NCBI GenBank assembly: GCA_043808095.1
Contig: JAZDFF010000001.1
Span: 94,230-158,229 of the forward strand
Reading direction: 5' to 3'
Origin: Candidatus Omnitrophota bacterium
GTDB lineage: Bacteria; Omnitrophota; Gorgyraeia; JAZDFF01
Length of the DNA stretch: 64,000 bases
Notes under the pieces: model-generated
What the model saw: the letters and a program-made list of their open reading frames with translations, nothing else
What the model was told of the DNA's origin: nothing
The model's database searches: none
Part shown: positions 838-59,140 of the stretch, piece by piece
Numbering within the stretch: the stretch's first letter is position 1
How the letters are laid out: the number at the start of each line of letters is the position of its first letter
Translations under genes and position numbers: made by a program

Positions 838-1100
838 CCCTAAACCATACTGGCATCATAACCTTAACCTTTAAACGTTACCATAATTGCGAAGTATTAC
901 ACTACCGGCAGGTAGGTATCGAAACTCGTCTTGAGTTGTTGATGCTGGTATCGTCCTTCGACAGGCTCAGGACGATATCCTGAGTGCAATCGAAGGATAT
1001 CGAAACTGGAAGCTTGATGCTCGTAAAATACATTAAACACGAGCCTCAAAAGACGAGCATCGATACGAGCATCCATACCGTAAACCGAGCTTCGAAACCA
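838..1100. repeat. Intergenic palindromic repeat cluster (family H plus CTAAACCATACTGGCATCATAACC module)
   Basis: 1054-1079 is the exact reverse complement of 22129-22154; 941-1000 matches the reverse complement of 22200-22260 at high identity; CTAAACCATACTGGCATCATAACC recurs at about 22965. Confidence 0.8.
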
Positions 1101-1131
1101 AAAGATAACATTACTCTAAAATAGTGCAATC

Positions 1132-2223
1132 ATGCGTAATACCCGTATAATTTTATTTATGGTTACGGTTATCCTGATCAATATCGGGATAGTGATGATC
1201 TATAGCGCAAGTAGTATCTATGCCCTAGAAAAATTAGGTGATAGTACTTATTTTTTGAGGCGACAACTTTTATTTATCTTTCTGGGTTTTATTCTGGCTA
1301 TTTTGGTTATGTATTGGGATTATTCCGTTTATCGAAAGTTTGCCAAAATTTCTATTCTTATTTCATTATTACTCTTGGTCCTGGTGAATATCCCGGGGAT
1401 AGGCAGGGAGGTAGGAGGCGCCAGGCGTTGGTTTAGATTATTCGGCTTTAGTTTCCAGCCTTCAGAGTTTGTTTTTTTAAGCCTGATCTTATACATGGCT
1501 GATTTTGTCAGCCGAAATAAAGCAAGGCTCCGGGATTTATTTTTCGGGTTTTTCCCTCCCATGTTAATTTTGGGCGCATTTTGCCTTTTAATCTTAATCC
1601 AGCCAGACTTGGGTAGCTCAGTTGCCCTGGGCATTGTGGGAATGATCATCTTATTTATGGCGGGAGTAAACCCAAAACACCTGGGGGCTATATTATTATC
1701 TGCAGTACCATTACTGTATCTGGTTGTTTTTAATGTCCCTTATCGAAGAGCCAGGATAATGACTTTTCTTAACCCTTGGGTTGACCCGCGGGGAAGCGGT
1801 TTTCAGATTATTCAGTCTCAGATTGCCTTAGGCTCAGGCGGATTATTAGGCAAAGGCCTGGGCAAAAGCGTTCAAAAACTATTTTATCTACCGGCAGCAC
1901 ATACGGATTTTATTTTTTCTATTGCAGGAGAGGAACTCGGTTTGATTGGCACGGCCAGCATTGTAATCCTTTTCATTATTTTTCTTTGGCTGGGGTTTAA
2001 GATTGTTACAAATGCCCGAGATAACTTTGGCAGATTCCTGGCCTTAGGGATTGTATCCGGAATCGGTCTTAAAGCGGTGATTAATATCGGGGTCTCCGCA
2101 GGCTTTTTTCCCACCAAAGGACTTCCTCTTCCATTTATAAGTTATGGTGGGTCGTCTTTAATCTTTGATATGCTGGCAGTGGGATTATTGCTTAATATCT
2201 CCCGCTCAAGCTGCCCTGACTAA
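1132..2223 (+). CDS. ftsW: Peptidoglycan glycosyltransferase FtsW (SEDS family)
   Basis: Multi-TM protein with SEDS motifs (GSSVALG, PxxHTDFIFS) between murD and murG. Confidence 0.85.
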   Translation: MRNTRIILFMVTVILINIGIVMIYSASSIYALEKLGDSTYFLRRQLLFIFLGFILAILVMYWDYSVYRKFAKISILISLLLLVLVNIPGIGREVGGARRWFRLFGFSFQPSEFVFLSLILYMADFVSRNKARLRDLFFGFFPPMLILGAFCLLILIQPDLGSSVALGIVGMIILFMAGVNPKHLGAILLSAVPLLYLVVFNVPYRRARIMTFLNPWVDPRGSGFQIIQSQIALGSGGLLGKGLGKSVQKLFYLPAAHTDFIFSIAGEELGLIGTASIVILFIIFLWLGFKIVTNARDNFGRFLALGIVSGIGLKAVINIGVSAGFFPTKGLPLPFISYGGSSLIFDMLAVGLLLNISRSSCPD

Positions 2224-2236
2224 AAATTATAAAGCA

Positions 2237-3340
2237 ATGAAGATAATCATAGCCACAACCGGTTCTGGTGGTCATCTTAGCCCGGCAATTGCCTTGGCTG
2301 AGGAGTTAAAAAGAAGGTCACCAGACCTGGATTTATATTTTATTGCAAGCGGCCAGCCCTTAACGGAAGGACAACTCAAAGGTAAAGCTTTTAAGATAAT
2401 AGTTTTCCCTGCCTTAAGCCCTAAGAAGAGTTTTGCTTTACAAAACATCATCTTAATAATAAAATTAATAGATATAGCCTTAAGGTCTTTATTTATAATA
2501 ATTAAGATTAGGCCGGATTTATCAATTGGATTTGGCGGTTATATTTCGGGCCCAGTAATTTTGTTTTCACATCTTTTGTCAGTCAGGACCGTTATTCATG
2601 AGCAGAACCTTAAACTTGGCCGAGCCAACAGGATATTGAGTAAATTTGTCGATAATGTCGCTTTAAGTTTTGAAGATTCAGTAGAATTTTTACGCCACCA
2701 AGATAAGGCTTTTGTTTGCGGAAATCCTTTAAGAAAAGATCTCATTAGTTCTTTGACTAGACAAGAGGCCTGTCTAGATATCGGCCTTACGCCAAACAGA
2801 TTTACCGTCTTGGTCACTGGCGGGAGTTTAGGCGCCAGGCACATAAATAAAGAGTTTATTAATCTGTTAAGAGACTGGAAAGACCCTGATTCGATACAGG
2901 TAATACATATCTCGGGAGAATTGGACTTTCAAGACGTGGTATCCGACTATGATACAATAAAGATACCGCATAAGGTATTCAGTCATTTTAGCAAGATGCA
3001 ATATGCTTATAGATGTTCAGACCTTGCTGTTTGTCGCGCTGGAGCAACGACCATAGCAGAACTGGCTTTTTTTGGTTTACCTGCAATATTAATCCCGTAT
3101 CCCTATGCCAGGGGAAACCATCAATTAGAAAATGCAGTTTTGTTAAAAAATTATTCTGCGGCGATCTTGATTGAGGATGATAAACTTGAGGCCGGGGTTT
3201 TAGAGAAACATATCTTAGGCCTGATTAGAGAGCCTAAGGAATTAACCCGGATGTCTCAAAATATCAAAAAATTTGCCAGGCCCGAGGCCGCCAAGGAACT
3301 GGCAGATTTGGTATTTTCTTATTCCCCTTCGCTCCGATGA
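2237..3340 (+). CDS. murG: Undecaprenyldiphospho-muramoylpentapeptide beta-N-acetylglucosaminyltransferase MurG
   Basis: N-terminal MKIIIATTGSGGHLSPAIALAEEL (GT28 G-loop); start placed at internal ATG 2237 rather than ORF-track start 2165. Confidence 0.85.
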   Translation: MKIIIATTGSGGHLSPAIALAEELKRRSPDLDLYFIASGQPLTEGQLKGKAFKIIVFPALSPKKSFALQNIILIIKLIDIALRSLFIIIKIRPDLSIGFGGYISGPVILFSHLLSVRTVIHEQNLKLGRANRILSKFVDNVALSFEDSVEFLRHQDKAFVCGNPLRKDLISSLTRQEACLDIGLTPNRFTVLVTGGSLGARHINKEFINLLRDWKDPDSIQVIHISGELDFQDVVSDYDTIKIPHKVFSHFSKMQYAYRCSDLAVCRAGATTIAELAFFGLPAILIPYPYARGNHQLENAVLLKNYSAAILIEDDKLEAGVLEKHILGLIREPKELTRMSQNIKKFARPEAAKELADLVFSYSPSLR

Positions 3341-3400
3341 TACGTCGGGGCTTCGGGGGATGTCACTAAATGCCTGCCTCACCGGCAGGCAGGGGCAAGT
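3341..3400. repeat. Palindromic repeat modules (CGATACGTCGGGGC and CCTGCCTCACCGGCAGGCAGG)
   Basis: CCTGCC-N-GGCAGG palindrome also at about 20622, 22249, 23027, 32573; GATACGTCGGGGC also at about 31285. Confidence 0.7.
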
Positions 3401-3508
3401 TGCTTATGGAGTGGGGTGGGGATAACCCGCCGAAGCTGAAGACGAAAGTTCTTCAGCGAAGGAGGGTAAATTTAGGTTCCAAGGGCTTGAAAGGGAGGTA
3501 TTCCATCT

Positions 3509-4315
3509 ATGATGAAATTTAGGCATACCGTCATATTGGTATTAATTTTTTTAGGCATTTTTTTGGGAGAGGTCAGTTATGCGGTATTAGATGATAATTG
3601 GCGAATCACCAAAGGTAATCACTTTATCATATCTTTTCGCCAGGAGGTTCCCGAGAAATTTGTGCTTAAGACCCTTGAGTATGCTGAGAAATACTACCAG
3701 GAGATAACCGAGAATCTCGGGTTCTCGCGGGAAAATTTCTGGTTAGAAGATAACCGCGCCAGGATTTATATCTACAAGGACAGCCAAGAGTATCTTAAAG
3801 CAACCGGCATGCCGGATTGGTCAGCAGGCACTGCAATCGGAAGACATAAGATTATCGAAACCTACGCCTCATCGATTAATTTTTTTGATAACCTTCTTCC
3901 TCACGAATTAGCCCATATAATCTTCAGGGAATTCATCAACCAAGAGCAGAATGTTCCTCTTTGGCTGGACGAGGGAGTCGCACAATATATGGAGAAAACC
4001 GGACGTAGCCACAGCAAAAAGATCATCAAAGATGCCCTGAACGATAATACCTTTTTCGAACTCACCGACTTGGCCAAGATTGACATCCGAACTGAGAAAG
4101 ATGATGCAAGGGTTCATCTTTTTTATGCGGAATCTTTGAGTGTGGTAGATTTTTTAATAAAGGAATTAGCGCCGTATCGGTTCTGCAATTTTTCTAAGGC
4201 CTTAAGGAGAGGCGCCTCTATTGATGATGCTTTAAAGGCTGCCTACCAAGACGCGAGCATAAATAATTTAGATGACCTTGGTAAGGTTTGGAAAAAGTCG
4301 CTTTTGGTCAAATGA
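3509..4315 (+). CDS. Secreted putative zinc metallopeptidase (HExxH, peptidase MA-like)
   Basis: N-terminal signal/TM segment; HELAH followed by downstream LDEGVAQY (gluzincin-like third ligand); sits inside the dcw cluster. Confidence 0.55.
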   Translation: MMKFRHTVILVLIFLGIFLGEVSYAVLDDNWRITKGNHFIISFRQEVPEKFVLKTLEYAEKYYQEITENLGFSRENFWLEDNRARIYIYKDSQEYLKATGMPDWSAGTAIGRHKIIETYASSINFFDNLLPHELAHIIFREFINQEQNVPLWLDEGVAQYMEKTGRSHSKKIIKDALNDNTFFELTDLAKIDIRTEKDDARVHLFYAESLSVVDFLIKELAPYRFCNFSKALRRGASIDDALKAAYQDASINNLDDLGKVWKKSLLVK

Positions 4316-9589: not shown

Positions 9590-9710
9590 ACAGTGATTTT
9601 GAAAAAAGATTACAGTGATATTATTGCAATGATATTTTAATCTGTGTAATCAATTTTTTCCCGCTTTGCGGGATCCCGCTAGAATATTTTTTATTTGTGC
9701 GGGATAATCA
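9590..9710. repeat. Intergenic repeat modules (GATTACAGTGAT x2; GGGATCCCGC palindrome)
   Basis: GATTACAGTGAT direct repeat at about 9594 and 9613; CCCGCTTTGCGGGATCCCGC resembles 32470-32510 and 41165-41200. Confidence 0.65.
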
Positions 9711-9731
9711 CAGGAATCTTATTTTATTAAA

Positions 9732-10616
9732 ATGATAATTATTCCCGCTATAGATTTAAAAAATGGTAAGGTCGTCAGGCTTTATAAAGGCGACTTCAAT
9801 AAAGTCAGCGAGTATTCCAATGACCCTGTCAGCGTGGCTTTATCCTGGCAAGGGCTTGGCGCCAGCTTAATCCATATTGTCGATTTAGAAGGGGCATTAA
9901 CCGGAGAACCCCAAAATAAAGCCATTATTAAGAAGATAATAAAGAGCCTTAAGATTGAAACTGAAGTAAGCGGCGGTTTTAGGACCAAGGAATTGATTGA
10001 GGAATTTATCCAGGCAGGTGCCACTCGTATCATCCTCGGCTCCAAAGTTCAGGAAGACCTGTCATTTTTAGAAGACATCTCAAAGGTTTATTCAAAAAGA
10101 CTGGCCATTAGCCTGGATGCGAAGTATCTAAAAGAGGATAAAAGCGGTTTAGTTTTAAATCTTTCTATTAAAGGGTGGCTTGAGGATAAAGAGGTTCCTT
10201 TAGAAGCCTTGCTTAAGGAGATTTATTCGCTGGGAATTCGCTTTATCAATTATACGGATGTCTCCCGCGACGGGACATTGGAAGGGATAGATCTTAATTC
10301 CGTAACCAAGATTATAGAAATCGTAAATAAATTTACCCCGTTAGAGAAAACCACTTCGACAATACTTCAAAGCGGACGCAACCCTCTAAGGCCAAAAGTG
10401 GTTAAAAACAAGCGTCAGCAGATACCGTTAGAGATTGAAAAATCTCTAACAGGGTTTAAAGGTTTTAATTTGATTGTTTCGGGAGGAGTTTCATCGATAG
10501 AAGATATTAAGAAAATCGCCAGATTTAAAGATTTCTACGGCCTAATTATAGGTAAGGCCCTCTATGAGGGCAGGGTGGATTTTAAAGAGGCAAATAAGAT
10601 TGCTCTGGGAAAATAA
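9732..10616 (+). CDS. hisA: HisA (ProFAR isomerase) carrying a roughly 45-residue insertion
   Basis: MIIIPAIDLKNGKVVRL and SGG/ALYEG motifs; extra segment NKFTPLEK...FKGF between the DGT motif and the final SGG strand. Confidence 0.8.
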   Translation: MIIIPAIDLKNGKVVRLYKGDFNKVSEYSNDPVSVALSWQGLGASLIHIVDLEGALTGEPQNKAIIKKIIKSLKIETEVSGGFRTKELIEEFIQAGATRIILGSKVQEDLSFLEDISKVYSKRLAISLDAKYLKEDKSGLVLNLSIKGWLEDKEVPLEALLKEIYSLGIRFINYTDVSRDGTLEGIDLNSVTKIIEIVNKFTPLEKTTSTILQSGRNPLRPKVVKNKRQQIPLEIEKSLTGFKGFNLIVSGGVSSIEDIKKIARFKDFYGLIIGKALYEGRVDFKEANKIALGK

Positions 10617-10645
10617 TTCATTCCTTATCATTGAAACTAGTTTTT

Positions 10646-10745
10646 GGGTATGGATGCTAGTATCGATACTCGTCTTGGAAGCTCGTATTTTGTTATCTTG
10701 TATCTAGCATCTAGTATCTAGCATCGATACCAGCATCGATAACTA
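10646..10745. repeat. Palindromic repeat, family H copy
   Basis: GGTATGGATGCTAGTATCGATACTCGTCTTGGAAGCTCGT matches 22129-22170 and the reverse complement of 1040-1080. Confidence 0.75.
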
Positions 10746-10787
10746 GAGACGAATATCAATGATCATGTTTTTAGGAAAGTAATAATT

Positions 10788-11545: not shown

Positions 11546-11887
11546 ATGGCCAAAACGATTAAATTAAAATTTAATAAAGACAGGCTTATCCCGGTGATTA
11601 TCCAGGATTACAAGACCAAAGAGGTATTAATGCTTGCCTATATGAATAGAGAGTCGCTTAAAAGGACCTTGCGGCTTGGCAAGACCTGTTTCTGGTCTCG
11701 TTCCAGGAAGAAATACTGGGTAAAAGGAGAGACCTCCGGACATTTCCAATTTGTTAAAGGTATTTCCTATGACTGCGACCAGGATGCCTTATTGATTAAG
11801 GTAAGACAGGTAGGCGTAGCCTGTCATACAGGTAATAGGTCATGCTTTTATAGGAAATTAAAACTAAGTAACCAGCCCCGAATGTAG
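11546..11887 (+). CDS. hisI: Phosphoribosyl-AMP cyclohydrolase HisI
   Basis: 113 aa; GLIPVIIQD-like N-terminus, CDxDALL and C-terminal Cys cluster. Confidence 0.8.
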
Positions 11888-11889
11888 AA

Positions 11890-12103
11890 ACCCAAGAAGT
11901 TATACATCGGGATCCCGAAGCGATACTTCGGAGAATATCTGCATTCGGGAAAACCAGAGTACAGAAACCAGAAAAAATAAAATCTGGTTACTGTCCCGAA
12001 TGTTGTTACTATGTTAGTTATTCTTCGGGATCCCGAAGCGATACCATAGTAGTTACTACATTCGGGATAAACTGTTAACTGGTTTCTCCCGAGCGAAGCG
12101 AGG
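11890..12103. repeat. Palindromic repeat cluster ending in shared CCGAGCGAAGCGAGG module before the trpE ATG
   Basis: CGGGATCCCGAAGCGATACTTCGG palindromes; ACCAGAGTACAGAAACCAG and CCGAGCGAAGCGAGG shared with 39369-39446; also related to 51410-51470. Confidence 0.8.
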
Positions 12104-13590: not shown

Positions 13591-13804
13591 TAATATTAAT
13601 TAAAATTAAAAAAGACTGTTGATTTAACATGATTTTAAATCCTAAATTCGAAGCACTAAATCCAAAACAAATCCAAAACCCAAAATTAAAAATTCGAAAA
13701 AAAGAATATATTTTGTATTTTGAACATTTGAGTTTGTTTAGAGTTTAGGATTTCGAATTTAGAATTTATCTTGAGTTTTAATAGGGTGTTCAAAAGGAGG
13801 ATTT

Positions 13805-16519: not shown

Positions 16520-16520
16520 G

Positions 16521-16690
16521 TGAGGCCACGACTTACGGAATGGAATGAACGTAAGTCGTCTTGGCCGAACTTATCCCCCACCACTTTTTGGAAAAGCATA
16601 AAATTCTCATTAAAGGTTTTACTCCTAAATTTACCTTTCATACTATCTCGAGTACTCTTTCAAAAAGTGGTGGGGGATTAAATTCGTCCG
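16521..16690. mobile_element. Cargo-free copy of the palindromic element that carries the GIY-YIG gene at 63291-63680
   Basis: Same left arm as 63291-63350 (TGAGGCC..ACTTACGGA..ACGTAAGT..GGCCGAA); perfect 18-bp inverted repeats ATCCCCCACCACTTTTTG (16573-16590) and CAAAAAGTGGTGGGGGAT (16661-16678) flank about 70 bp with no ORF; same TTAAATTCG tail. Confidence 0.7.
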
Positions 16691-16718
16691 CCACTGAATC
16701 AATGGCGGGCTCATTAAA

Positions 16719-18644
16719 ATGTTTAAGTCATTAAAACTCTACCGAAACCAAATAATCGAATTAGAAAGTGTTGTTACACAGCTAGACCAACTCGGCTATA
16801 GGCGCCAAAATCAGACTCAGGAAGAAGGCGACTTTAGCCTGCGCGGGGATGTCCTGGATATATTTCCTGCCACTTTCGAATTTCCTATAAGGATTGACCT
16901 TGACGTTGAAAGTATTAATGCGATTAGAAGTTTTAGCACGAGCGACGCAAAACCAATTTTAGAGCACGAGGCAGTAATAATTTTACCCAAAAAGATTTCA
17001 AGCGGTCTTTCTAAGCTTCATTTGGATTTTAAAGAAGAGGTTCCGATTGACAATTTCCTCGATTTAGCAATCGGCGATTATGTAGTACACGTAAAGCACG
17101 GTATCGGCAGGTTTTTGGGGATGAATAAAATTAATACCAAAGACGGCCCAAAAGACCACTTAATTGTTGAATATGCCGGTAATGACAGGTTATTTGTGCC
17201 GGTAGATTCTATGCACCTGGTGCAGAAGTATATCAGTTTTGAAAGGGGCAGGCCGAAATTATATAAATTAGGCTCCGGAGAGTGGCTCCGGGTCAAGAAC
17301 AGGGCAAGAAAAGGGATCTTTCTTTATGCAGCCGAGCTCCTAAGGATGCAGGCGGCAAGAGAGAGTCTTTCGGGATTTAGTTTCTCCCCCGATACTGACT
17401 GGCAAAAAGAATATGAAAAGAATTTTCCTTACGTTGAGACTCCCGACCAGGCCAAGGCTACTGTTATGGTTAAGCAAGATATGGAGTCGTCTCAACCCAT
17501 GGATAGGCTTCTTTGCGGAGATGTCGGTTACGGAAAGACCGAGGTAGCCATGCGTGCTGCCTTTAAGGCGGTAATGGATAACAAACAAGTGGCAATCCTT
17601 GTTCCCACGACGATCTTGGCTGAGCAGCATTATTATAATTTCTCCAGTCGCCTTAAGGACTTTCCTATTAATGTCGAGATGCTCAGCCGTTTTAAGTCTC
17701 ATGCTGAACAAAAGAATATCATAAAGATGCTGGCAGCGGGGCTCGTTGACATCGTAATCGGAACCCACCGTTTAATTTCAAACGACATCAAATTCAAAGA
17801 CTTAGGGCTAGTAATCATTGATGAGGAGCAGCGTTTTGGGGTAAGGGCAAAAGAAAAACTTAAGAATTTGCGACTCTTAGTGGATGTCCTGACTTTGACT
17901 GCAACGCCAATTCCGCGTACACTTTATATGTCTTTAATGGGCGCTAAAGATATGTCGGTTATAAATACTGCCCCCCAAAACCGCCTGCCCATTGAGACCT
18001 ATGTCGCTGAATATAGCGATGCCCTCGTGCGCCAGGCGATATTGCGGGAACATCGCCGTAGCGGCCAGGTATTTTTTGTGCATAATCGTGTCCAAAGAAT
18101 TGAAAAGATTTTAAAAAGACTATCTAGGCTTTTACCAAGCACTATAAAGATCGGTCTGGCCCATGGGCAAATGGATTCGCGCAGCCTTGAAAAGATAATG
18201 TTTTCTTTTTTAAAAGGAAACCTTGACGTTTTGGTTTCTACTTCTATAATTGAATCAGGGATAGATGTACCTAATGCCAATACCCTTATTGTTGATAATG
18301 CCCAGGATTTTGGTTTGGCGGACTTACATCAGTTGCGGGGCAGGGTGGGCAGGTTCAATGTGAAGGCCTTTGCCTATTTTCTTACGCTTAATATTAGCCT
18401 CTTATCAACCGAGTCCCAAAAACGCCTTGAAGTAATCAAAAAATATTCCCAGTTAGGAGCAGGTTTTAAGATTGCCTTTGAGGATTTAGGAATCCGCGGG
18501 GCAGGAAACCTTTTGGGAGTACAACAGCATGGTTTTATCTCATCGGTAGGTTTTGATCTTTATTGCCGCCTGCTTCGCGAGACCATCAGTAATCTAAAAG
18601 GGCGTCACAAAAGTTCCGCCTTTAGGCTGGAACGATTTTTGTGA
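16719..18644 (+). CDS. mfd: Mfd-like transcription-repair coupling factor, core only (lacks UvrB-homology N-terminus and C-terminal D7)
   Basis: RNAP-interacting motif DYVVHVKHGIGRF, helicase motifs GDVGYGKTEVA, DEEQRFG, QLRGRVGR; 641 aa versus about 1150 aa for canonical Mfd. Confidence 0.8.
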   Translation: MFKSLKLYRNQIIELESVVTQLDQLGYRRQNQTQEEGDFSLRGDVLDIFPATFEFPIRIDLDVESINAIRSFSTSDAKPILEHEAVIILPKKISSGLSKLHLDFKEEVPIDNFLDLAIGDYVVHVKHGIGRFLGMNKINTKDGPKDHLIVEYAGNDRLFVPVDSMHLVQKYISFERGRPKLYKLGSGEWLRVKNRARKGIFLYAAELLRMQAARESLSGFSFSPDTDWQKEYEKNFPYVETPDQAKATVMVKQDMESSQPMDRLLCGDVGYGKTEVAMRAAFKAVMDNKQVAILVPTTILAEQHYYNFSSRLKDFPINVEMLSRFKSHAEQKNIIKMLAAGLVDIVIGTHRLISNDIKFKDLGLVIIDEEQRFGVRAKEKLKNLRLLVDVLTLTATPIPRTLYMSLMGAKDMSVINTAPQNRLPIETYVAEYSDALVRQAILREHRRSGQVFFVHNRVQRIEKILKRLSRLLPSTIKIGLAHGQMDSRSLEKIMFSFLKGNLDVLVSTSIIESGIDVPNANTLIVDNAQDFGLADLHQLRGRVGRFNVKAFAYFLTLNISLLSTESQKRLEVIKKYSQLGAGFKIAFEDLGIRGAGNLLGVQQHGFISSVGFDLYCRLLRETISNLKGRHKSSAFRLERFL

Positions 18645-20532: not shown

Positions 20533-20690
20533 AATAGTAAATATGATTTTAAAAACAAATTTTATATACGAATGCAAACAGATGGTTACTGATGTTGCGG
20601 ATAAAAATAATCCGTTTGAATCCCTGCCTGACGGTGAGGCAGGCGCTAAAATCTGTATGCATCGCAAAATTTTTAATTATTTCAGTTAAT

Positions 20691-22067: not shown

Positions 22068-22119
22068 TATGAAAATATTAAATTGTACTATTCAAAAGTC
22101 GAGTTAACAGTTTGAAGCT

Positions 22120-22310
22120 CGGTTTTTCGGTATGGATGCTCGTATCGATGCTCGTCTTGGAAACTCGTCTTATGTTTTATCTAGCTTCGATATCCTTAGA
22201 TTGCACTCAAGATACCGTCCTGAGCCTGTCGAAGGACGATACCAGCATCCCTGCCTCACCGGCAGGCAGGGACGACCTAAGACGAGTATCGATACCTTGG
22301 TTGTTGAGTA
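22120..22310. repeat. Palindromic repeat cluster, family H (inverted relative to copy at 900-1100) plus CCTGCCTCACCGGCAGGCAGG
   Basis: 22129-22154 is the reverse complement of 1054-1079; 22200-22260 matches the reverse complement of 941-1000. Confidence 0.8.
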
Positions 22311-22749: not shown

Positions 22750-23060
22750 AATCTTCCGCCACAATTCTTTTGCACCACAAATATTGGCGCATCCGCCAAT
22801 TATTATGGCGGAGGCGGACCCGCCAATCTTTGTGGCGGGAACGCTAATGTTCGCGAATCTTTAAAATTGCCTAATTTTATGGTTAAGTTTTCGGGCTAAG
22901 GTTAAGAAACCAGTATGGAAAATTAGGTTAGGGTTAAGTATTTCTTTACCTAACCTTAACCTCTAAACCATACTGGCATCATAACCCTAACCATAACCTG
23001 AGATTAGCGAGAATTCGCGTTTCCTGCCTGCCGTGAGGCAGGGATTAGCGGAAATTCGCG
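22750..23060. repeat. Palindromic repeat cluster (CCGCCACAA...TTGTGGCGG family; GGTTAAG module; CCTGCC palindrome)
   Basis: GGCGGACCCGCCAATCTTTGTGGCGGG is identical at about 22813 and 59093; related copy at 30001-30060. Confidence 0.8.
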
Positions 23061-24182: not shown

Positions 24183-24365
24183 TGACACATTCGACTTCGT
24201 GGTTCGACAGGCTCACCACTCCTGGACCATCCCGAACGAACCCATTCGACTTCGCTCTGCTTCGGCAAGCTCAGCATTCACCCTGAGCGAGTGAAACGAG
24301 TCGAAGGGCTCAGGGTTTGTACTGAGTTTATCGAAGGACGAAGTTGAAGGGCTCAGTGTCAATTC
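24183..24365. repeat. Palindromic repeat, family D (GGTTCGACAGGCTCACC / CGAAGGGCTCAG)
   Basis: Related copies at 48287-48362, 45763-45880 and 41333-41360. Confidence 0.75.
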
Positions 24366-24879: not shown

Positions 24880-25000
24880 ATTCCTAATGACTAAATCCTA
24901 ATGAATAATTAATTCTTAAATTATCCAATGTCTAATTAGAATTTTAGGCATTAAGAAATTTAGAAATTTATTCGTCATTCGTCATTAGAAATTTGGCATT
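24880..25000. repeat. Palindromic repeat, family F (TTATTCGTCATTCGTCATTAGAAATT)
   Basis: Related copies at 55030-55160 and 58960-59035. Confidence 0.75.
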
Positions 25001-25023
25001 AATAAACCGAATAAAATTATAAA

Positions 25024-32442: not shown

Positions 32443-32444
32443 AA

Positions 32445-32600
32445 TCTAGATTACAATGATTATCCCGCGCAATAATAAATATTCAACGGGATCCCGCAAA
32501 GCGGGGAAAGTTGGATTACACAGATGATGCAGAGAGGCCTTTGCCTTTAATCTGTGAAATCTTTTTTAAAATCCCTGCCTGTCGACAGGCAGGTGCGCAA
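32445..32600. repeat. Palindromic repeat cluster (GGGATCCCGCAAAGCGGG, ATCTGTG and CCTGCC palindrome modules)
   Basis: Modules shared with 9650-9710, 41165-41200, 3371-3396. Confidence 0.7.
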
Positions 32601-35555: not shown

Positions 35556-35659
35556 ACCGCTAAAACGCAAAAATTCCGCTAAAGCGCAAAATTTAATTGA
35601 ATAATTTCTTTGCGATTTTGCGCCTGCATGCCGTCAGTTAGGGGTTTTGCGCCTTTGCG

Positions 35660-38393: not shown

Positions 38394-39368
38394 ATGGCTA
38401 TAGAATTATATAAAGAAAAGTGGGTCAATAATGTTAATGAGGTGATTTTAGGCGCCACAAAAGAAGAGGGCGGAAGTCGCGCATTTTCTTTGAAGGTGGG
38501 CGGCGAGTCCTGTCTGCCTTATTTATTTGAAGAGGGTTCTATGCCCAATGCGCCCGTGGTTGCCCAGGAGATTTGGGATATCGAGCCTACTGATTGGCCG
38601 GAGATCTTGAGAGAGCCGTTTAAAGATGTCCTGGCAAATCCCCTGGAGTGGGCCGAGAAGGCAGTTAAGGCTTATGGCGCGAATTTATTGTGTCTAAAAT
38701 TACAGGGTGCGCATCCTGATTCAGGAAACCGGCCTAACGATGAATTAGTCAAGATCTTAAAAGATATCTTAAAGACAGTCAATGTGCCTTTGATCGTTTC
38801 AGGATGCGGTGATGACGCCAAAGATAACCTCCTCATGCCTCTTTTAAGCGAGGCGACTAAAGGAGAACGCATCCTTTTTGGCGACGCTGTCCAGGATAAC
38901 TATAAGACGATTACGGCAAGCGTCTTAGCTGACGGACATAATATTATTGCCGAGTCGCCCATTGATATTAATATTGCTAAGCAACTTAATATCCTGATTA
39001 CTGACATGGGGTTGCCTGGGGATAAGATTGTGATTAATCCTACGGTGGGCGCTTTAGGTTATGGCCTTGAGTATGCTTATTCCATAATGGAGAGGGCCAG
39101 GCTTGCGGCATTGGCCGGTGATAAGATGATGAGTATGCCTTTTATATGTTTCATCGGCCAGGAGGCTACCAAGGCCAAAGAGGCTAAGGCCACTATAGAG
39201 GAACATCCCCAATGGGGCAAGGAATTAGAGCGGGGGATTGTTTGGGAGGCGGTTACTGCCTGTGCATTTTTACAGTCCGGAGCAGACATCCTGGTTATGC
39301 GTCATCCCCAGGCGATAAAACTGATTAAAGAGACGATAGAAGAGTTAATGTCTAAGAGTAACCAGTAA
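38394..39368 (+). CDS. acsD: Corrinoid iron-sulfur protein small subunit AcsD
   Basis: 324 aa TIM-barrel-like protein between cooC and acsE; size and context match CFeSP small subunit. Confidence 0.65.
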   Translation: MAIELYKEKWVNNVNEVILGATKEEGGSRAFSLKVGGESCLPYLFEEGSMPNAPVVAQEIWDIEPTDWPEILREPFKDVLANPLEWAEKAVKAYGANLLCLKLQGAHPDSGNRPNDELVKILKDILKTVNVPLIVSGCGDDAKDNLLMPLLSEATKGERILFGDAVQDNYKTITASVLADGHNIIAESPIDINIAKQLNILITDMGLPGDKIVINPTVGALGYGLEYAYSIMERARLAALAGDKMMSMPFICFIGQEATKAKEAKATIEEHPQWGKELERGIVWEAVTACAFLQSGADILVMRHPQAIKLIKETIEELMSKSNQ

Positions 39369-39446
39369 CCAGAGTACAGAAGCCAGGGCTAAGTATTTTT
39401 CTGGTTTCTGTTTACAGGTTTCTGATCTCTACCGAGCGAAGCGAGG
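39369..39446. repeat. Repeat module ending in CCGAGCGAAGCGAGG just before the acsE ATG
   Basis: ACCAGAGTACAGAAGCCAG and CCGAGCGAAGCGAGG shared with 11955-12103. Confidence 0.8.
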
Positions 39447-41139: not shown

Positions 41140-41365
41140 GCTCAGGGTCGATTTTTTTCCCGCCGAATCGGGATCCCGCAAAATGCGGGAAACGCCAAAG
41201 TTCTTTCGCATTTTCGGTGGCTGCGGAACTCGCTCGAATAATCGCCAGGTTCATATTTGGAGAAGGAGGTAAAGAGGAGAAAGAGTTTAATGTGGCCTGT
41301 TTCCGCCTTGGGAGGGGGGAGCAATGAAGAATGTGGTTCGACAAGCTCACCACATAGAAGGTCGG
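41140..41365. repeat. Palindromic repeat cluster (GGGATCCCGCAAAATGCGGG; GTGGTTCGACAAGCTCACCAC)
   Basis: Family C and D modules. Confidence 0.65.
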
Positions 41366-41779: not shown

Positions 41780-42002
41780 TTCTACTTCGTCAAAGTGTTT
41801 TCACCTTTGACTTCGTAGAAATATTAGGCGATGGTAGGTTCTGCGAAGCCCATACCATAGTTTTTATATTGAAGGGCGAAGCAGACCACTCGCCGTCACT
41901 CTATGATATTGCTCAGGGTGACAATCCTAAGCGACTGGTGACTAGTATTGTCGAATCAAGTCGAAGGGCGCCACCAGTGCCTGTAATTTAAAGGAGGTTT
42001 TT

Positions 42003-48056: not shown

Positions 48057-48362
48057 CAATAATCCTCTGTGGAATAAATAATGATTGCATGTTCCACAGA
48101 TGGACACAGAATTACTTAAATAAGGTAATTAGGTGATCGGGGTATTGGTTTTGGATATTGGGGTATTGGGATATCAGGGATTTTGTCACTAATCCCCAAT
48201 TATCCTAATCACCAAATCCTAATCTCCTAATTTCCTATTCTCCATTTTTATCTGTGCTAGTCTTGTATCTTCTAATCTGTGCTAATGGTTCGACTTCGCT
48301 CTGGTTCGACAAACTCACCATTCGCCCTGAGCGAACGAAGTGAGTCGAAGGGCTAATCTGTG
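48057..48362. repeat. Palindromic repeat cluster (GGGTATTGG hairpins, ATCTGTGCTA modules, family D)
   Basis: 48287-48362 GGTTCGACTTCGCTCTGGTTCGACAAACTCACC...CGAAGGGCT matches 24183-24310. Confidence 0.75.
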
Positions 48363-49520: not shown

Positions 49521-50373
49521 TTCCCATAAAGGCGATTATGGACATATCCTGGTTTTAGCCGGTTCATCAGGATATACGGGTTCAGCGATTCTATGCGCCC
49601 GTACAGTTTTACGCGCAGGCGCAGGCCTAGTTACCTTAGGCGTACCAGAAAGTTTATTAAATATATACCAAAGGCGCGTAGTTGAGGTAATGACATTGGG
49701 GTTGGCTGAAACTCCCAAAAAGACGCTGAGTTTTAAAGCCTATGCGCAAATAAAAAAGATACTTACCAGGATTGAGGTTTTAATAGTCGGGCCGGGGCTA
49801 TCTCAAAATCCATCTACCCAAAAGCTGGTCCGCAAGATTATTAAGACTGTAAATAAACCCATGGTTATTGATGCCGACGGTCTCAATGCCCTGGTCGGAC
49901 ATCTTGATATTTTACGAAAGACGAAGGGCGAGAGACGAGGGACCCTTCGACTACGCTCAGGGCAGGCGAAGATACTTACTCCGCATCCGGGGGAGATGGC
50001 CCGGTTATTAGGGGTTTCTGTAAAGAAGATTCAAGAAAACAGAAAAAACATTGCCAAAAAATTTGCCAGAGATTATAATACTGTGTTAGTTTTAAAAGGC
50101 CATAACACAATAGTGGCCCAGCCTAAGGCAGAGACCTACATAAATAAGACGGGAAATCCCGGTATGGCAACCGCAGGTAGCGGTGATGTCTTGACCGGAA
50201 TGATCGGCGCTTTTTTGGCTCAAGGTTTAGATGGGTTTAGCGCAGCCAAGTACGGGGTTTATTTACACGGTTTAGCCGGTGATTTAGCGGCAAAAGATAA
50301 AACACAGATAGGCTTGATTGCCTCAGATATCATCGAGAGGATTCCCGGGGCAATAAAATTAGCAAGTCGCTAA
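49483..50373 (+). CDS. nnrD: ADP-dependent NAD(P)H-hydrate dehydratase (YjeF C-terminal domain)
   Basis: HKGDYGHILVLAGSSGYTGSA, GSGDVLTG motifs. Confidence 0.85.
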   Translation: MRLPARLLKRRLNSHKGDYGHILVLAGSSGYTGSAILCARTVLRAGAGLVTLGVPESLLNIYQRRVVEVMTLGLAETPKKTLSFKAYAQIKKILTRIEVLIVGPGLSQNPSTQKLVRKIIKTVNKPMVIDADGLNALVGHLDILRKTKGERRGTLRLRSGQAKILTPHPGEMARLLGVSVKKIQENRKNIAKKFARDYNTVLVLKGHNTIVAQPKAETYINKTGNPGMATAGSGDVLTGMIGAFLAQGLDGFSAAKYGVYLHGLAGDLAAKDKTQIGLIASDIIERIPGAIKLASR

Positions 50374-50507: not shown

Positions 50508-50622
50508 CTTTTCCAAAATTGACTACGTCAATTTTGGAGTAGCGAGTAGAGAATATTTTATTCACTGACTACTATGTACTATTTACTGATTACTAAAGGG
50601 ATGATTTCTTATAGTTTAAAAC

Positions 50623-50982
50623 GGGCAGGTACCCAAGCGGTCAAAGGGGACAGACTGTTTAAAAGCAGCGCCCCGACGAAAGTCGTGGTGGAAAAGTAGG
50701 TGAATTCAGGGAAACCCTCTCGTAACTACGAAAGGTAATCCTGAGCCAATCCTCGCACAAAGCTGGCAGGCAGAAGGCCTGCTTGCTGAAGCTTTAGCGA
50801 AGGCAGGTGCAGAGACTAAGCGCCTACCACCTAAAACTGGATGAAGCCCAGTTTTATCCCAAGCGAAGTTAAGGGATAACTTCTCTGGTTAAGGTGATGA
50901 GATAGTCCAAGCCTTGAGGAAACTCAAGGGATACTTGAAATCTGTTGCACACGCTTCAGAGGTTCGAATCCTCTCCTGCCCA
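50623..50982 (+). tRNA. tRNA-Tyr(GTA) interrupted by a group I intron in the anticodon loop
   Basis: Exons GGGCAGGTACCCAAGCGGTCAAAGGGGACAGACTGT + AAATCTGTTGCACACGCTTCAGAGGTTCGAATCCTCTCCTGCCCA form a class-II Tyr cloverleaf (acceptor GGGCAGG/CCTGCCC, anticodon stem ACAGA/TCTGT, loop CTGT|AAA). Confidence 0.75.
50659..50937 (+). ncRNA. Group I intron (IC3-like, no ORF) within tRNA-Tyr
   Basis: 5' splice site after U with GCAG guide-sequence partner; terminal G; core elements AATCCTGAGCCAA, GGTGCAGAGACTAAGCG and GAGATAGTCC resemble cyanobacterial tRNA-Leu intron P3/P7 elements as recalled from memory. Confidence 0.7.
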
Positions 50983-51084
50983 TTCTACTTCGCTCAAGTG
51001 CTTTCGCCTTGGGCTTCGTAGAAATTATTGGGAAAGGAAGGTTCTGAGTAGCTGAAAGTGAAAACAATTTAGCGAAGGAGAATC

Positions 51085-51358: not shown

Positions 51359-51397
51359 GCGGGCATAGCACAGTGGTAGTGCAGTGGCCTTCTCCCG
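51359..51397 (+). other. tRNA-like 5' half (acceptor and D-arm only)
   Basis: GCGGGCATAGCACAGTGGTAGTGCAGTGGCCTTCTCC resembles the 5' half of a Gly-type tRNA but no T-arm or 3' acceptor follows; a family C palindrome follows. Confidence 0.35.
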
Positions 51398-51475
51398 AAT
51401 GAAGAAACTTCTTTAGAATAGCATCGGGATCCCGAAGTATAACTTCTTGGGTTACTACATTCGGGGCAAGCTATA
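51398..51475. repeat. Palindromic repeat, family C (CGGGATCCCGAAG / CATTCGGG)
   Basis: Reverse-complement match to 11895-11940. Confidence 0.7.
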
Positions 51476-51559: not shown

Positions 51560-51890
51560 AATAGTTTACACGGGTTTCCGCCACCCGTCATCTTTGATGG
51601 CGAGTGGCGAGATCTCGCCGAAGCTAAAAAAATGGAGTCCACGGCTTTACCCTCTTCGACTCGCGTCGAGCGAGGCGAGCAGCCGTGGTACCTGAAAAAC
51701 CCGCCTACGCTTCGCTTCGGCGAGGTCCGCTCGCCTCGCGGCGAAGCCGCGGGCCTTCAATACGTAATGGCGACATCTCGCCGTAGCGCTAATTGCACGC
51801 ATTCATCCCCAGGTTCACACCTGGGGTTTTCCCGCCAAAGGCGAGGCTCGCCAAAGGCGGCTGCGCGAAGGCGGATAAATATCTAGCTTC
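51560..51890 (+). repeat. GC-rich island with four GGCGAG-N(2-5)-CTCGCC hairpin palindromes
   Basis: Palindromes at 51607-51620 (GGCGAGATCTCGCC), 51719-51735, 51779-51792, 51840-51852; composition clearly more GC-rich than the surroundings; ORFs here are Arg-rich low-complexity and judged spurious. Confidence 0.55.
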
Positions 51891-55029: not shown

Positions 55030-55160
55030 GATTAAATGCCTAATGACTAATGAATTCTTAAATGACTTAATGTCCAATGTCAAATTAAACCATTTCATTA
55101 GAAATTTAAAAATTAGGAATTTATTCGTCATTAGTCATTAAAAATTTGACATTAAATCAA
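55030..55160. repeat. Palindromic repeat, family F
   Basis: GAATTTATTCGTCATTAGTCATTAAAAATT matches 24963-24992. Confidence 0.75.
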
Positions 55161-55171
55161 TAAAATAATCT

Positions 55172-57413: not shown

Positions 57414-57455
57414 TGTTTCTGTAAATAATCATTTTTGATTATATGAGGAAACATA

Positions 57456-58100
57456 ATGAACTATAACGATTTTCGTAAAAAATTCCAATCTCTGCCTATC
57501 TTTACCAGCAAAGACGTAGTTAGGCTGCAGCCGGACAAACAAGCTGTGCGCAATCAGATTAATCGCTGGCAGGCAAAGGGGCTGCTTATTCAATTAAAGC
57601 GGGGGTTATATGCGTTTGATGAAATCGACCGCAAGGTCGACTTAAACCTTCATTTTATTGCTAATAATCTTTATGCGCCTTCATATATCAGCTTAGAGTC
57701 GGCATTAAATTTTTATGGTTTAATCCCGGAGAAGGCAGTTGATTTAACCTCTGTAACTACTAAAAAAACCGCCATTTTTAAGAATAAATTAGGAGTTTTT
57801 ATCTATCAGCACATTAAGCCAAATGCCCTTAGAGGATTTAGGCAGGTTAAAGATAATTCTGGTTATACCTTTTTTATTGCTGAGCCTGAAAAAGCGATTG
57901 TGGATTTTTTTTATTTGAACTTAAGCAGATTTAAGCCCAAAGACAGGGACATTTTTGAAGTCTCATACCGTTTTCAGAACATTGAAGGACTGAAAGTTTT
58001 AAAGATCTTAGAGTATGCCAATTTGTTTAACAACCTTAAACTTTTGAAGGTCTGCCAGAATTTCTGCAGATTCATCAAGAAAGAGGCAAAAAATGATTGA
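57456..58100 (+). CDS. abiEi: AbiEi-like antitoxin/transcriptional regulator
   Basis: N-terminal wHTH with QINRWQAKGLLIQLKRGLYAF; overlaps the following nucleotidyltransferase gene by 8 nt. Confidence 0.7.
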   Translation: MNYNDFRKKFQSLPIFTSKDVVRLQPDKQAVRNQINRWQAKGLLIQLKRGLYAFDEIDRKVDLNLHFIANNLYAPSYISLESALNFYGLIPEKAVDLTSVTTKKTAIFKNKLGVFIYQHIKPNALRGFRQVKDNSGYTFFIAEPEKAIVDFFYLNLSRFKPKDRDIFEVSYRFQNIEGLKVLKILEYANLFNNLKLLKVCQNFCRFIKKEAKND

Positions 58101-58893
58101 GGTCATCAAGCAACAATTTGTAGAAAATATGTCGACCGGAGAAAAGATTAACAGGGTGCGAGAGTTCTTGCAGACCTTGGTTTTAAAGATTATTTACGAC
58201 AAGGATTATTTCAATAATCTTGCCTTTGTTGGAGGCACGGCCTTAAGGTTTTTATACAGCCTAAGGCGTTTCTCCGAAGACCTTGATTTTTCTCTGGTAA
58301 ATAAGGAAGGTTATAATTTCAGGAAAATTAATGCGGAGGTTATTGAAGGATTTGGTTCTTTTGGCTTTGAAATAGAAAGCAGACCCAAAGATGAAAAGAA
58401 TGTTCACAGCGCAATGCTGAGATTTAAGGGATTGTTAAAGGCGCTTGGGCTTTCTGATATGGATGAGCAGAAACTTTCTGTTAAACTTGAGATAGATACC
58501 AATCCGCCAAAGGGTTGGAATGTTCAAACTAGCGTTGTTAATAAGACCTATCTTTTGAATATCGTCCATTTTGATTTATCTTCTTCGTTTGCCACAAAAT
58601 TACATGCCTGTTTTTACCGCAAATTTGTGAAGGGCCGCGATTTTTATGACCTCATCTGGTATCTTGGCAAGAAAATCGTCCCCAATTTTGTATTATTAAA
58701 CAATGCGATCGCGCAAACCCAGGGGAAAAATCCCGGTATAGATGTAGATAATTTTAAGGAGTTTATTTTAGAAAACCTGAAGAAGATCGATTTTGATAAG
58801 GCAAAAGCAGATGTTGAAAGGTTCTTAGAGGATAAAAACGAACTTAAGCTTTTTGATTTTGCGGTAATTAGGGGCGCAATTGAATTACTCTAG
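58093..58893 (+). CDS. abiEii: AbiEii/AbiGii-family nucleotidyltransferase toxin
   Basis: GGTALRFLYSLRRFSEDLDFS NTase motif (GG...DxD); 266 aa. Confidence 0.75.
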   Translation: MIEVIKQQFVENMSTGEKINRVREFLQTLVLKIIYDKDYFNNLAFVGGTALRFLYSLRRFSEDLDFSLVNKEGYNFRKINAEVIEGFGSFGFEIESRPKDEKNVHSAMLRFKGLLKALGLSDMDEQKLSVKLEIDTNPPKGWNVQTSVVNKTYLLNIVHFDLSSSFATKLHACFYRKFVKGRDFYDLIWYLGKKIVPNFVLLNNAIAQTQGKNPGIDVDNFKEFILENLKKIDFDKAKADVERFLEDKNELKLFDFAVIRGAIELL

Positions 58894-58959
58894 CCCGGCC
58901 CTTTTGACAATATATGACAACTTTATGGCAATGTTTGACTATCCGTTAAATGCGCCAAC

Positions 58960-59140
58960 TCGAAAACTCGTCAACTCGTTGAACTCGAAATTCGTCATTC
59001 CATTAGTCATTCGAAATTAGGAATTTTCGATTCTAGATTAGCGCAGATATTTATCTGTGCTCATCTTGTAGCATTTTCCGCCATAATGCTTTGGCGGACC
59101 CGCCAATCTTTGTGGCGGGCATCTGTGCTAATCTGCGACT
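58960..59140. repeat. Palindromic repeat cluster (families F, B, A)
   Basis: GGCGGACCCGCCAATCTTTGTGGCGGG identical to 22813-22839; CGTCATTCC...CATTAGTCATTCG family F. Confidence 0.8.

Follow-up and report, generated by a model that had tools for sequence, protein, structure and literature searches.

The spacers between the genes of a 64,000-nucleotide stretch of DNA from a Candidatus Omnitrophota bacterium (contig JAZDFF010000001.1; hereafter the window) contain repeats that are organized as nested palindromic DNA in three tiers. The first tier consists of small hairpin modules of 21-45 nt, designated A, B, C, and D; the second of palindromes that act as carriers (C2, E, F, G, and H; 70-200 nt) and are made up of iterated 7-8-nt oligomers and their complements; and the third of the I-element, a unit of 145-200 nt with three hairpins. 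Many spacers fold into one long imperfect hairpin from which smaller hairpins branch near the tip, and the small modules lie within or beside carriers, often at hairpin tips and often between 9-22-nt direct repeats of carrier sequence (22740/22840, 23002/23043, 48275/48355). The best explanation for the spacers as a whole, and one that we consider likely, is that a layered population of palindromic DNA elements, non-autonomous and insertional, resides in them.

All of the repeats quoted in an earlier, sequence-only reading of the window could be located again, with coordinate offsets of 0-9 nt. Segments 1054-1079 and 22129-22154 are indeed exact reverse complements of each other; the 27-mer GGCGGACCCGCCAATCTTTGTGGCGGG, which recurs unchanged at 22813 and 59093, has a third copy on the minus strand at 30009; CCTGCC...GGCAGG variants are present at 3373, 20623, 22250, 23023, and 32574; GGTTCGACA.GCTCACC occurs at 24201 and 41335 and, with one mismatch, at 48303; cores of the type GGGATCCCG lie at 9668, 11907, 12025, 32488, 41170, and 51424; and ATCTGTGCTA is found at 30066 (minus strand), 48250, 48275, and 59121. 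The sequence TTATTCGTCATTCGTCATTAG is exact at 24968 and has 2-3 mismatches at 55121, but its supposed third copy at 58988 is just a weak similarity. The largest and most informative family, the I-element, was absent from the list. Repeats are thus abundant, but the claim that they saturate the spacers went too far: recurring families account for 23% of the non-coding DNA and all delimited elements for 49%, and 16 of the 39 non-coding segments have no detectable match to other spacers of the window. Repeated 14-mers cover 2.7% of the intergenic versus 0.27% of the coding positions, and blastn comparison between spacers yielded 113 high-scoring segment pairs (HSPs) over 1776 of 7676 strictly non-coding nucleotides, against 0-12 HSPs and 0-160 nt in 20 dinucleotide shuffles. 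The folding z-score (minimum free energy) was below -2 in 29 of the 39 non-coding segments (mean -3.8, minimum -10.5), while 26 coding controls averaged +0.1. Since a Logan contig from an independent assembly (L089, run SRR27925880; loci and contigs are cited here by L number) matches window positions 29991-31162 at 1172 of 1172 bases, the repeats are not an assembly artefact of this metagenome-assembled genome (MAG), a possibility that had been raised along with them. The composite with module A is part of this contig, whose end falls within repeats.

Module A in its full form is a twin hairpin (TYTCCGCC-loop-GGCGGA CCCGCCA-ATYTTTG-TGGCGGG). Changes in its stem are compensatory while the loop ATYTTTG is kept, the variants TTTGCCA/TGGCAAA and ATCCGCCA/TGGCGGAT altering both arms together. 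We found 12 hairpins that combine such a loop, (A/T)TNTTTG, with a perfect stem of 6 bp or more, versus 0-2 for control loops. Module B (CCTGCC-N-GGCAGG(CAGG), 20-21 nt) is present in five window copies; C1 reads CCCGC-TTTG-GCGGGATCCCGC; and module D, based on TTCGACARGCTCA...GTCGAA, occurs seven times, either short or in a form of 66 nt. Some modules are perfect 20-nt palindromes.

That these elements have been inserted is indicated by a comparison of paralogous carriers. The three copies of the F carrier (about 190 nt) align throughout and differ by modules whose indel boundaries are sharp. A D module of about 50 nt is nested in two of them, at 953-998 in copy 1 (914-1093, plus strand, with CGATAC(C/G)AGCATC oligomers) and at 22192-22237 in copy 2 (22114-22297, minus strand); a 21-nt module B (22250-22270, plus strand) is found in copy 2 only and is missing from its two paralogs; and copy 3 (10633-10760, minus strand) is devoid of D and B and carries heptamer repeats, an ATCTAGC array, instead. 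A comparison with related genomes points in the same direction. The Hainich groundwater locus L090, whose TsaD protein is 68% identical to that of the window, is syntenic over gatB-ctpA-deacetylase-tsaD-mgtC; its deacetylase/tsaD and tsaD/mgtC junctions are 4-nt overlaps, whereas the window possesses spacers of 194 nt and 188 nt at these positions. In a set of 55 related loci, the median gap upstream of tsaD is -1 nt, and 40 of the 55 gaps are no longer than 20 nt; six loci have a gap of at least 100 nt. These comparisons show that the elements arrived by DNA-level insertion at junctions where the genes had originally been closely spaced or had overlapped.

Copies are found inside genes as well. 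A D-like module on the plus strand (49943-49975) lies in frame in the NnrD gene, where it encodes ..GTLRLRSGQAK.. and accounts for 11-12 residues beyond the solved homologues 2ax3 and 1kyh, and module A adds 11 residues to the product of an aminotransferase gene in L008 when compared to 6pk1. Module B occupies one and the same TsaD loop in L090 and L053, and L002 has tandem A copies within an open 350-aa frame. MnmE in L003 was considered as a further in-frame case and is not proven; the locus is cut, and the alignment begins just after the module. Structured RNAs likewise harbor module A: it resides in a peripheral hairpin of the RNase P RNA of L001 (a 52-nt insert versus 6 model positions; 164.6 bits) and in the variable hairpin of a thiamine pyrophosphate (TPP) riboswitch in L004 (a 58-nt insert versus 9 model positions; E = 1.3e-6), and the insert is the reason why this riboswitch, with 46.9 bits, scores under the gathering score of 54.3. 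In L007 (positions 3456-3644; MAG labelled Planctomycetia), one hairpin loop of a c-di-GMP-I riboswitch contains module A and another hairpin an oligomer-iterated, carrier-type insert of about 75 nt; the RNA scores 36.5 bits versus a gathering threshold of 35, and its function may be compromised. The loci with module A share only a core of 27-42 nt, and their flanks are unrelated. The elements are thereby shown to sit also where extra sequence is tolerated, namely in surface loops of proteins (in frame) and in structured RNAs at apical loops. In its general form, the proposal of the sequence-only reading that small, mobile palindromic repeats have expanded is borne out by the carrier indels, by spacers that are absent from the junctions of relatives, and by the copies in coding sequences and RNA genes.

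One might ask whether the palindromes could have grown in place, by slippage of 7-8-nt units together with intrastrand template switching (quasipalindrome correction), with the similarity between spacers arising from gene conversion between existing palindromes and without any movement. The many short arrays of 7-8-nt period in the spacers would fit such a process, as would the strand-symmetric decay of the palindromes and the long hairpins that are unique to one spacer (13625-13785, 48130-48262, 35556-35659). Identical 27-42-nt cores in unrelated contexts, genomes, and phyla, in coding sequences as well as in RNA genes, stand against it, and so do the sharp indel boundaries between paralogous carriers and the occurrence of the GIY-YIG/I-element unit (described below) at six different loci. 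In-place growth probably contributes to the carriers; it cannot explain the dispersed families, and as an account of the spacers as a whole we consider it most improbable.

The extent to which the families are shared with other genomes differs. We scanned 185,579 representative genomes with a 24-base pattern for module A; the strict pattern was found at eight loci, which are spread over seven MAGs: five from Omnitrophota and one each from Binatia and Planctomycetia. Outside the window, module A is carried by ten loci, among them a Binatia contig of 59% G+C that has it upstream of rplP; viral contigs, when scanned for this module, contained no copy. The window-specific variant of module B missed other genomes and the palindromic consensus was needed; the perfect palindrome CCTGCCTGCCGGCAGGCAGG occurs at at least ten other Omnitrophota loci, with four copies in open frames. 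Families C to K look lineage-specific in such comparisons, and the other Omnitrophota loci have a comparable or higher density of repeated 13-mers, made up of families of their own. Some positions are kept across species: an I-element follows mgtC in the window and in L090, and a GIY-YIG element lies between wzc and an HTH_17 gene in the window and in L091/L092. Several genomes are thus shown to have in common at least modules A and B and the I/GIY-YIG element. Intergenic repeats in this phylum went unmentioned in two recent Omnitrophota genome surveys and in our literature searches.

The I-element was defined from an alignment of twelve full-length copies without an open reading frame (ORF), taken from the window and seven other loci. 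Its 5' part reads (T)AA / (A/G)TGA(G/A)GNC, hairpin P1, GNCC GAAYTTA; the middle part YCCCC, the variable hairpin P2, GGGGR TTAAYTCG; and the 3' part hairpin P3, GCTCAT / TAAA. The arms, (A/G)TGAGGNCAYAAGTTAYGG..., form the terminal inverted repeats of an ORF-less unit of 145-200 nt, as they do in MITEs (miniature inverted-repeat transposable elements). A search with nhmmer gave 31 matches, and L039 alone holds at least eight copies in 19 kb. The position of the element is exactly between one gene's stop codon and the Shine-Dalgarno sequence of the next. In the window, the ORF-less copy at 16520-16718 (plus strand; P3 hairpin CCGCCACTGAATCAATGGCGG) fits exactly between the stop codon of secDF and the start of mfd; a second one (31747-31916, plus strand) follows mgtC, at the same position as in L090; and a remnant of the left arm (31098-31135, plus strand) provides the last nine codons of tsaD and its stop, so that the protein ends in MRPQHTERK (31098-31126), while relatives differ (..YKGRSG in L090). 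The hairpins of I-elements host small modules: CCGCCA-CTGAATCAA-TGGCGG forms P3 at 16688 and recurs in L095, P3 of L093 contains a B-like palindrome, and some A and B modules have CCGCCA/TGGCGG stems like those of I-element hairpins.

Two features of the genes that follow I-elements were seen in passing. The Mfd homologue (16719-18644), whose start lies directly 3' of an I-element, is just 641 aa long and spans positions 299-826 of the 907-position mfd model. Small genes for HTH_17 (excisionase-type) proteins come directly after I-elements in about 8 of 17 cases read; such genes are located in the window at 31933-32442, 32618-32935, and 63747-63935, and also in L010, L037, L039, L069, and L091, and one of the window genes encodes a fusion with a bactofilin domain.

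A longer form of the I-element is present at 63290-63720 (plus strand). Its hairpin P2 contains an ORF of 84 aa (63401-63652) with a GIY-YIG domain (Pfam E = 4e-17) and without a DNA-binding domain, which is enclosed by the inverted repeats CCCCCACACCAATTAT and ATAATTGGTGTGGGGG; the boundary of this cassette is defined by the 14-nt inverted repeats CCCCACACCAATTA / TAATTGGTGTGGGG. Among solved proteins, its closest relatives are UPF0213 BH0048 (E = 1e-4) and SLX1, a structure-specific endonuclease. Homologues with 70-82% identity are encoded, in unrelated gene neighborhoods, by MAGs labelled Omnitrophota, Portnoybacteria, Endomicrobiia, and Cloacimonetes, and an identity of this order across phyla is what would be expected of a horizontally moving gene. 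We read the genomic context of ten homologues (loci within L091-L106). Arms, inverted repeats, and ORF occur together in six of six distinct contexts of the Omnitrophota type: between wzc and HTH_17 (window and L091/L092); upstream of recA, purH, and spoVG; after gltB; and between T2SS-F and a pilin gene. In Cloacimonetes, the GIY-YIG gene has a partial repeat, and an ORF-less pair of repeats lies beside the gene. When 0.94 Mb of loci centred on TsaD were searched with tblastn, no additional GIY-YIG gene came to light, and our literature searches found no description of a GIY-YIG element or cassette with inverted repeats.

The GIY-YIG ORF with its inverted repeats looks like a compact mobile cassette. 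In ORF-less I-elements, the base of P2 retains CCCCCAC(A)CCA (window copy at 16520, L057, L036), and from such comparisons we infer that the ORF-bearing I-element is a candidate autonomous parent from which the ORF-less copies would derive by internal deletion. In the mechanism that we propose, the form of about 430 nt that carries the GIY-YIG gene would be the autonomous or homing parent of the ORF-less I-elements; a structure-specific nuclease would cut hairpin or cruciform DNA; host repair would then copy the element in; and intrastrand template switching would keep the palindrome arms matched. Hairpins in the polycistronic transcripts would be a by-product that may secondarily affect mRNA stability. 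We put forward only tentatively, as a possibility that may well fail, that the I-element represents a new type of mobile element whose only gene encodes an 84-aa SLX1-like GIY-YIG nuclease, which is bounded by 14-nt CCCCACACCAATTA repeats, occurs in at least four phyla, and in Omnitrophota has structured arms and would have given rise to MITE-like ORF-less copies that insert exactly between stop codons and ribosome-binding sites, with modules A and B as smaller riders on the same cut-and-repair route.

Known GIY-YIG genes offer a point of comparison. The window ORF shares the GIY-YIG catalytic domain with free-standing homing endonuclease genes (I-TevI, T4 Seg) and with SLX1/UPF0213. It is set apart from them by its length of 84 aa, the lack of a DNA-binding domain, the 14-nt inverted repeats, the structured arms in Omnitrophota, and the ORF-less copies that accompany it. 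MITEs, a class that the sequence-only reading had invoked and that in bacteria is exemplified by Correia/NEMIS and ERIC, resemble the I-element and the 79-nt C2 element in their terminal inverted repeats, lack of an ORF, strong structure, and many dispersed copies at gene junctions, and for the I-element a longer ORF-bearing form that shares its ends exists in six contexts. The candidate parent, however, encodes a GIY-YIG nuclease and not a DDE transposase, and the likeness does not extend to the modules of 21-45 nt, which are without separate terminal inverted repeats or target-site duplications.

Since the repeat families occur in both orientations while transcription of the region is one-way, show no strand bias, have no T-runs, and match nothing in Rfam, we read their palindromy as a property of the DNA, with RNA hairpins as a consequence. 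When 39 spacers were folded on either strand, the plus strand was the more stable one in 23 (Wilcoxon p = 0.24), with 238 versus 191 G-U pairs. Rfam 15 gave no match to a spacer even at E <= 1; only the three tRNAs and a group I intron were matched. A different view would be that the hairpins are selected RNA-level signals in co-directional operons, such as intercistronic stabilisers, RNase processing sites, or terminators, which recur because they are recognized by a shared protein or RNase. The genes of the window all lie on one strand with the elements between cistrons, and the I-element in particular has properties that one would expect of such a signal: its placement between a stop codon and the next Shine-Dalgarno sequence, its conserved position after mgtC in L090, and the 22 of 36 pairs predicted by RNAalifold that have changes on both sides. 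All four module A copies inside RNA genes are in the sense orientation. Terminator-like sites in the 20-40 kb region are mildly enriched (29 versus 19 +/- 4.6); since this enrichment is only mild and no T-runs were found at the modules, we rejected the terminator hypothesis. The orientation of the families relative to transcription, the lack of a strand asymmetry both in stability and in G-U versus A-C pairs, the modules that lie in frame in coding sequences, the orthologous junctions that in most relatives have no spacers at all, and the lineage-specificity of most families, together with the lack of Rfam matches, all speak against selected RNA signals, and we hold this view to be unlikely.

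The sequence-only reading had likened the repeats to repetitive extragenic palindromic (REP) sequences and to the bacterial interspersed mosaic elements (BIMEs) formed by them, and in the strict sense this likeness did not hold. In a true REP/REPIN system with BIME-like clusters, the hairpins would be mobilized as single-stranded DNA by an IS200/IS605-type tyrosine transposase, a REP-associated tyrosine transposase (RAYT), that is encoded elsewhere. Insertion of the IS200/IS605 type proceeds without target-site duplication, and this mechanism would fit the insertion without such duplications seen here. Modules A, B, and C, hairpins of 20-45 nt with 3-7 copies each in 64 kb, are in keeping with the size of REPs (stem-loops of 20-40 nt, mostly extragenic, in many copies). 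As in some REP families, we found short imperfect palindromes that are mostly extragenic and between co-directional genes, clustered, sometimes intragenic, and sometimes nested in larger ones (PMC3733652, PMC3116915), and GTAG repeats have been reported from the PVC superphylum (PMC3733652). A REP, however, is a short stem-loop with an unpaired GTAG or CGTC at one end (PMC3733652), and neither tag is present at the ends of A, B, C, or D; GTAG is in fact under-represented in the spacers (28 observed versus 51 +/- 7 expected), and CGTC occurs as often as expected (34 versus 34). A RAYT gene was not seen in the window. Unlike BIMEs, in which Y and Z units alternate with fixed linkers, the window has several unrelated module families in carriers; doublets in which a single REP type is arranged head to head do not predominate, and the only A-A pair of the window is a direct tandem and not an alternating one. 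A REP-RAYT system strikes us as very unlikely.

Rickettsia palindromic elements (RPEs) are palindromic as well; they are found in intergenic regions and as in-frame insertions in coding sequences, and they form lineage-specific families with old inserts shared across a clade (PMC1779305). The elements of the window resemble them in being present both in spacers and in frame in protein genes. RPEs are set apart from them by description, since they measure 100-150 bp and fall into the sequence families RPE-1 to RPE-8 of Rickettsiales, whereas A, B, and D measure 21-45 nt (66 nt for the long form of D) and belong to Omnitrophota. In cyanobacteria, small dispersed repeats (SDRs), hairpin repeats of about 21-27 nt that are nested in carriers and in tandem heptamer arrays, were reportedly described by Elhai et al. 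in 2008, with their mobility inferred from indels, and heptamer arrays termed short tandemly repeated repetitive (STRR) sequences are said to include one inside a peripheral helix of an RNase P RNA, a finding ascribed to Vioque (1997). By these definitions, the 21-nt indel formed by module B in its carrier, the heptamer arrays, and the insert in RNase P RNA would all have counterparts in cyanobacteria. The differences are the other phylum and the twin hairpin of module A with a loop that is conserved across phyla.

Several of our observations weigh against the reading of the spacers as a layered population of inserted elements, or against parts of it. Apart from their own stem, modules A, B, and D lack terminal inverted repeats, and convincing target-site duplications are missing from them; the flanks of most I-element copies (NAA/...TAA) are ambiguous in this respect since these bases may belong to the palindrome. 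The strict pattern of module A, with 1-2 copies per genome in 7 of 185,579 genomes, is rare for an active spreader, and none of the families C to K was found in 0.87 Mb of related loci, in which shuffled versions gave zero matches also. The positions that are conserved between species speak for long residence or function rather than recent movement. The I-element displays a perfect covariation between A(G/A)T of its 5' part and A(C/T)T of GAAYTTA (8 G-C, 3 A-U, and 0 broken pairs; one sequence lacks the column), with G-U and A-C about equally frequent among the exceptions in its stems, and the covariation in these stems could reflect selection on structure. Neither a transposase nor a RAYT is encoded in the window, as far as annotation and the reading of translations, rather than a complete profile scan, can tell. 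Because the GIY-YIG cassette occurs in Endomicrobiia and Portnoybacteria with its inverted repeats only and without the I-arms, it may be nested in I-elements as a guest rather than being their parent.

The copies of the small modules in the window are distributed as follows. Module A is found at 22786/22813 and 59078 (plus strand) and at 30009 (reverse complement). The first of these sites is a tandem cluster (22757-22839, plus strand) in which a diverged copy (22786-22812) precedes the canonical 27-nt core (22813-22839), between 22-nt direct repeats AACGCTAAT..AATCTT. At 59035-59135 (plus strand), an E carrier (AGATTAGCGCAGAT / ATCTGTGCTNATCT) surrounds module A (59078-59119), and the junction between the deacetylase gene and tsaD is filled by an inverted version of this A+E composite with an identity of about 90% (29993-30090, minus strand). 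Next to the former composite lies the only sizeable minus-strand ORF with a domain match (59141-59449), a fragment that matches the sigma-54 DNA-binding domain over its final 59 positions (Pfam E = 1e-17) and is thus a truncated remnant of rpoN; its stop codon abuts the composite, and the truncation point is at the opposite end. Copies of module B lie, besides the one in the F carrier, at 3373-3393 (plus strand; CCTGCCTCACCGGCAGGCAGG), at 20623-20643 (minus strand) 5' of the probable start of ksgA, at 23023-23042 (minus strand) at a hairpin tip with 21-nt direct repeats GATTAGCG.GAATTCGCGTTT on either side, and at 32574-32593 (plus strand), where it is the perfect-palindrome variant CCTGCCTGTCGACAGGCAGG. 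A C1 composite with the core CCCGCTTTGCGGGATCCCGC is present at 9640-9734 (plus strand) and, inverted, at 32432-32525 (minus strand), and a twin hairpin of the C1 type (TCCCGCCGAATCGGGATCCCGCAAAATGCGGGA) at 41158-41190 (plus strand). Further modules of the D family, these ones on the plus strand, include a short form GTGGTTCGACAGGCTCACCAC (24199-24219) followed by the 66-nt long form (24245-24310) within 24199-24310, a short form at 41333-41353, and a long form at 48289-48354 between TAATCTGTG direct repeats of an E carrier. The earlier suggestion that the repeats mediate local rearrangements and truncations is barely supported: gene ends and reading frames have been remodelled (the end of tsaD and the insert in NnrD), but no breakpoint that could be assigned to a repeat was found.

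Among the larger repeats, the C2 element (about 79 nt) has 11-nt terminal inverted repeats and, in two of its three copies, flanking direct repeats of 5-6 nt. Its first copy (11875-11953, plus strand; terminal inverted repeats CCCGAATGTAG / CTACATTCGGG, core CTTCGGGATCCCGAAG) is flanked on both sides by AACCAG and the second (11992-12070, plus strand) by ACTGT, while the third (51390-51468, minus strand) lies between a small ORF and a tRNA-Gly gene. A G repeat (AACCCTAAACCATACTGGCATCATAACC) occupies 828-869 (plus strand), and a second one (22952-22992) is part of the long G-carrier hairpin at 22880-22998 (plus strand). The H carrier, a 130-nt hairpin of AATGACT / ATTCGTC heptamers, is present at 24889-25020 and again at 55030-55169 (both plus strand). 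J and K repeats (AACCAGAGTACAGAA.CCAG and CCGAGCGAAGCGAGG) lie at 39367-39446 (plus strand) and are common to 11952-11976 and 12079-12103. Two long hairpins on the plus strand are unique: that at 13625-13785, with oligomers of the AAATCC / GGATTT type, has carrier architecture and no second copy in the window, and that at 48130-48262 consists of 8-nt iterations GGATATTG / TCCTAATC. Tandem Repeats Finder detected many low-copy arrays of 7- and 8-nt period within carriers (ATCTAGC, TTTAGAA, ATTCGTC, AATGACT, TTTCTGG, TCCTAATC). A heptamer-like array in gatA (25166-25198; AGATGCC x 4.7), which is 83-88% complementary to the F-carrier array at 10694-10725, was considered as an insertion and rejected, as it adds no sequence relative to solved GatA.

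The tRNA genes are accompanied by features of their own. A trailer repeat 3' of tRNA-Met (41780-41849, plus strand) has its partner at 50980-51052, behind an intron-bearing tRNA; these trailers of about 70 nt (CATTCTACTTCG..hairpin..CTTCGTAGAAAT..GGTTCTG.G.AGC) are 75% identical over 96 nt including the 3' end of the tRNA. The intron (50593-50980) belongs to group I (Rfam RF00028, 86.6 bits) and lies within a class II tRNA gene that ARAGORN did not call; by our reading of its exons (GGGCAGG...CTGT / AAATCTGT...CCTGCCCA), the interrupted gene would be tRNA-Tyr(GUA), with the break within the anticodon. A G+C-rich, strongly structured stretch of 230 nt (51561-51792, z = -6.8) with the hairpins GGCGAG/CTCGCC and CCACGGCT/AGCCGTGG is located 3' of tRNA-Gly; it has neither a second copy in the window nor a match in Rfam.

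The window has a G+C content of about 41% and a positive GC skew along its whole length, and all gene-like ORFs of at least 100 aa are on the plus strand. Its genes are largely housekeeping ones: a dcw cluster (ftsW, murG, murC, murB, ddl, ftsQ, ftsA), hisAFI, trpE, secDF, mfd, and gatCAB, together with tsaD, a Wood-Ljungdahl corrinoid cluster with acsV, ftsH, folP, pdxJ, three tRNAs, and genes for capsule export. Amid them lies an AbiEi/AbiEii toxin-antitoxin pair (57456-58893). The TsaD protein has the same sequence as NCBI protein MFH1201376.1, which belongs to a MAG of Candidatus Omnitrophota; its closest relative anywhere, as judged by protein search, is 68% identical, and the best one in the JGI metagenomes 59%.

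The spacer repeats are palindromic selfish DNA of a familiar kind, here in an undescribed form. How small palindromic repeats move without a transposase is a long-standing question that has been raised for the CGTC REPs (PMC3733652). The combination of a palindromic element with a minimal GIY-YIG nuclease gene provides a directly testable hypothesis for such mobilization. The same question of mobility is said to have been asked for RPEs and for the cyanobacterial SDRs. If our more tentative view of modules A and B as riders on the route of the I-element is true, they would be among the smallest known mobile DNAs, with the ability to invade proteins as well as RNA genes and to pass from one phylum to another. 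The repeats break short-read assemblies, as is seen from the Logan contig ends inside them, and they inflate the spacers of otherwise compact operons. They add peptides to conserved enzymes (TsaD, NnrD, aminotransferase) and arms to RNase P RNA and riboswitches, whose covariance-model scores are thereby lowered. For the Omnitrophota, a phylum of widespread, uncultured, ultra-small bacteria, they would represent a neglected layer of genome architecture.

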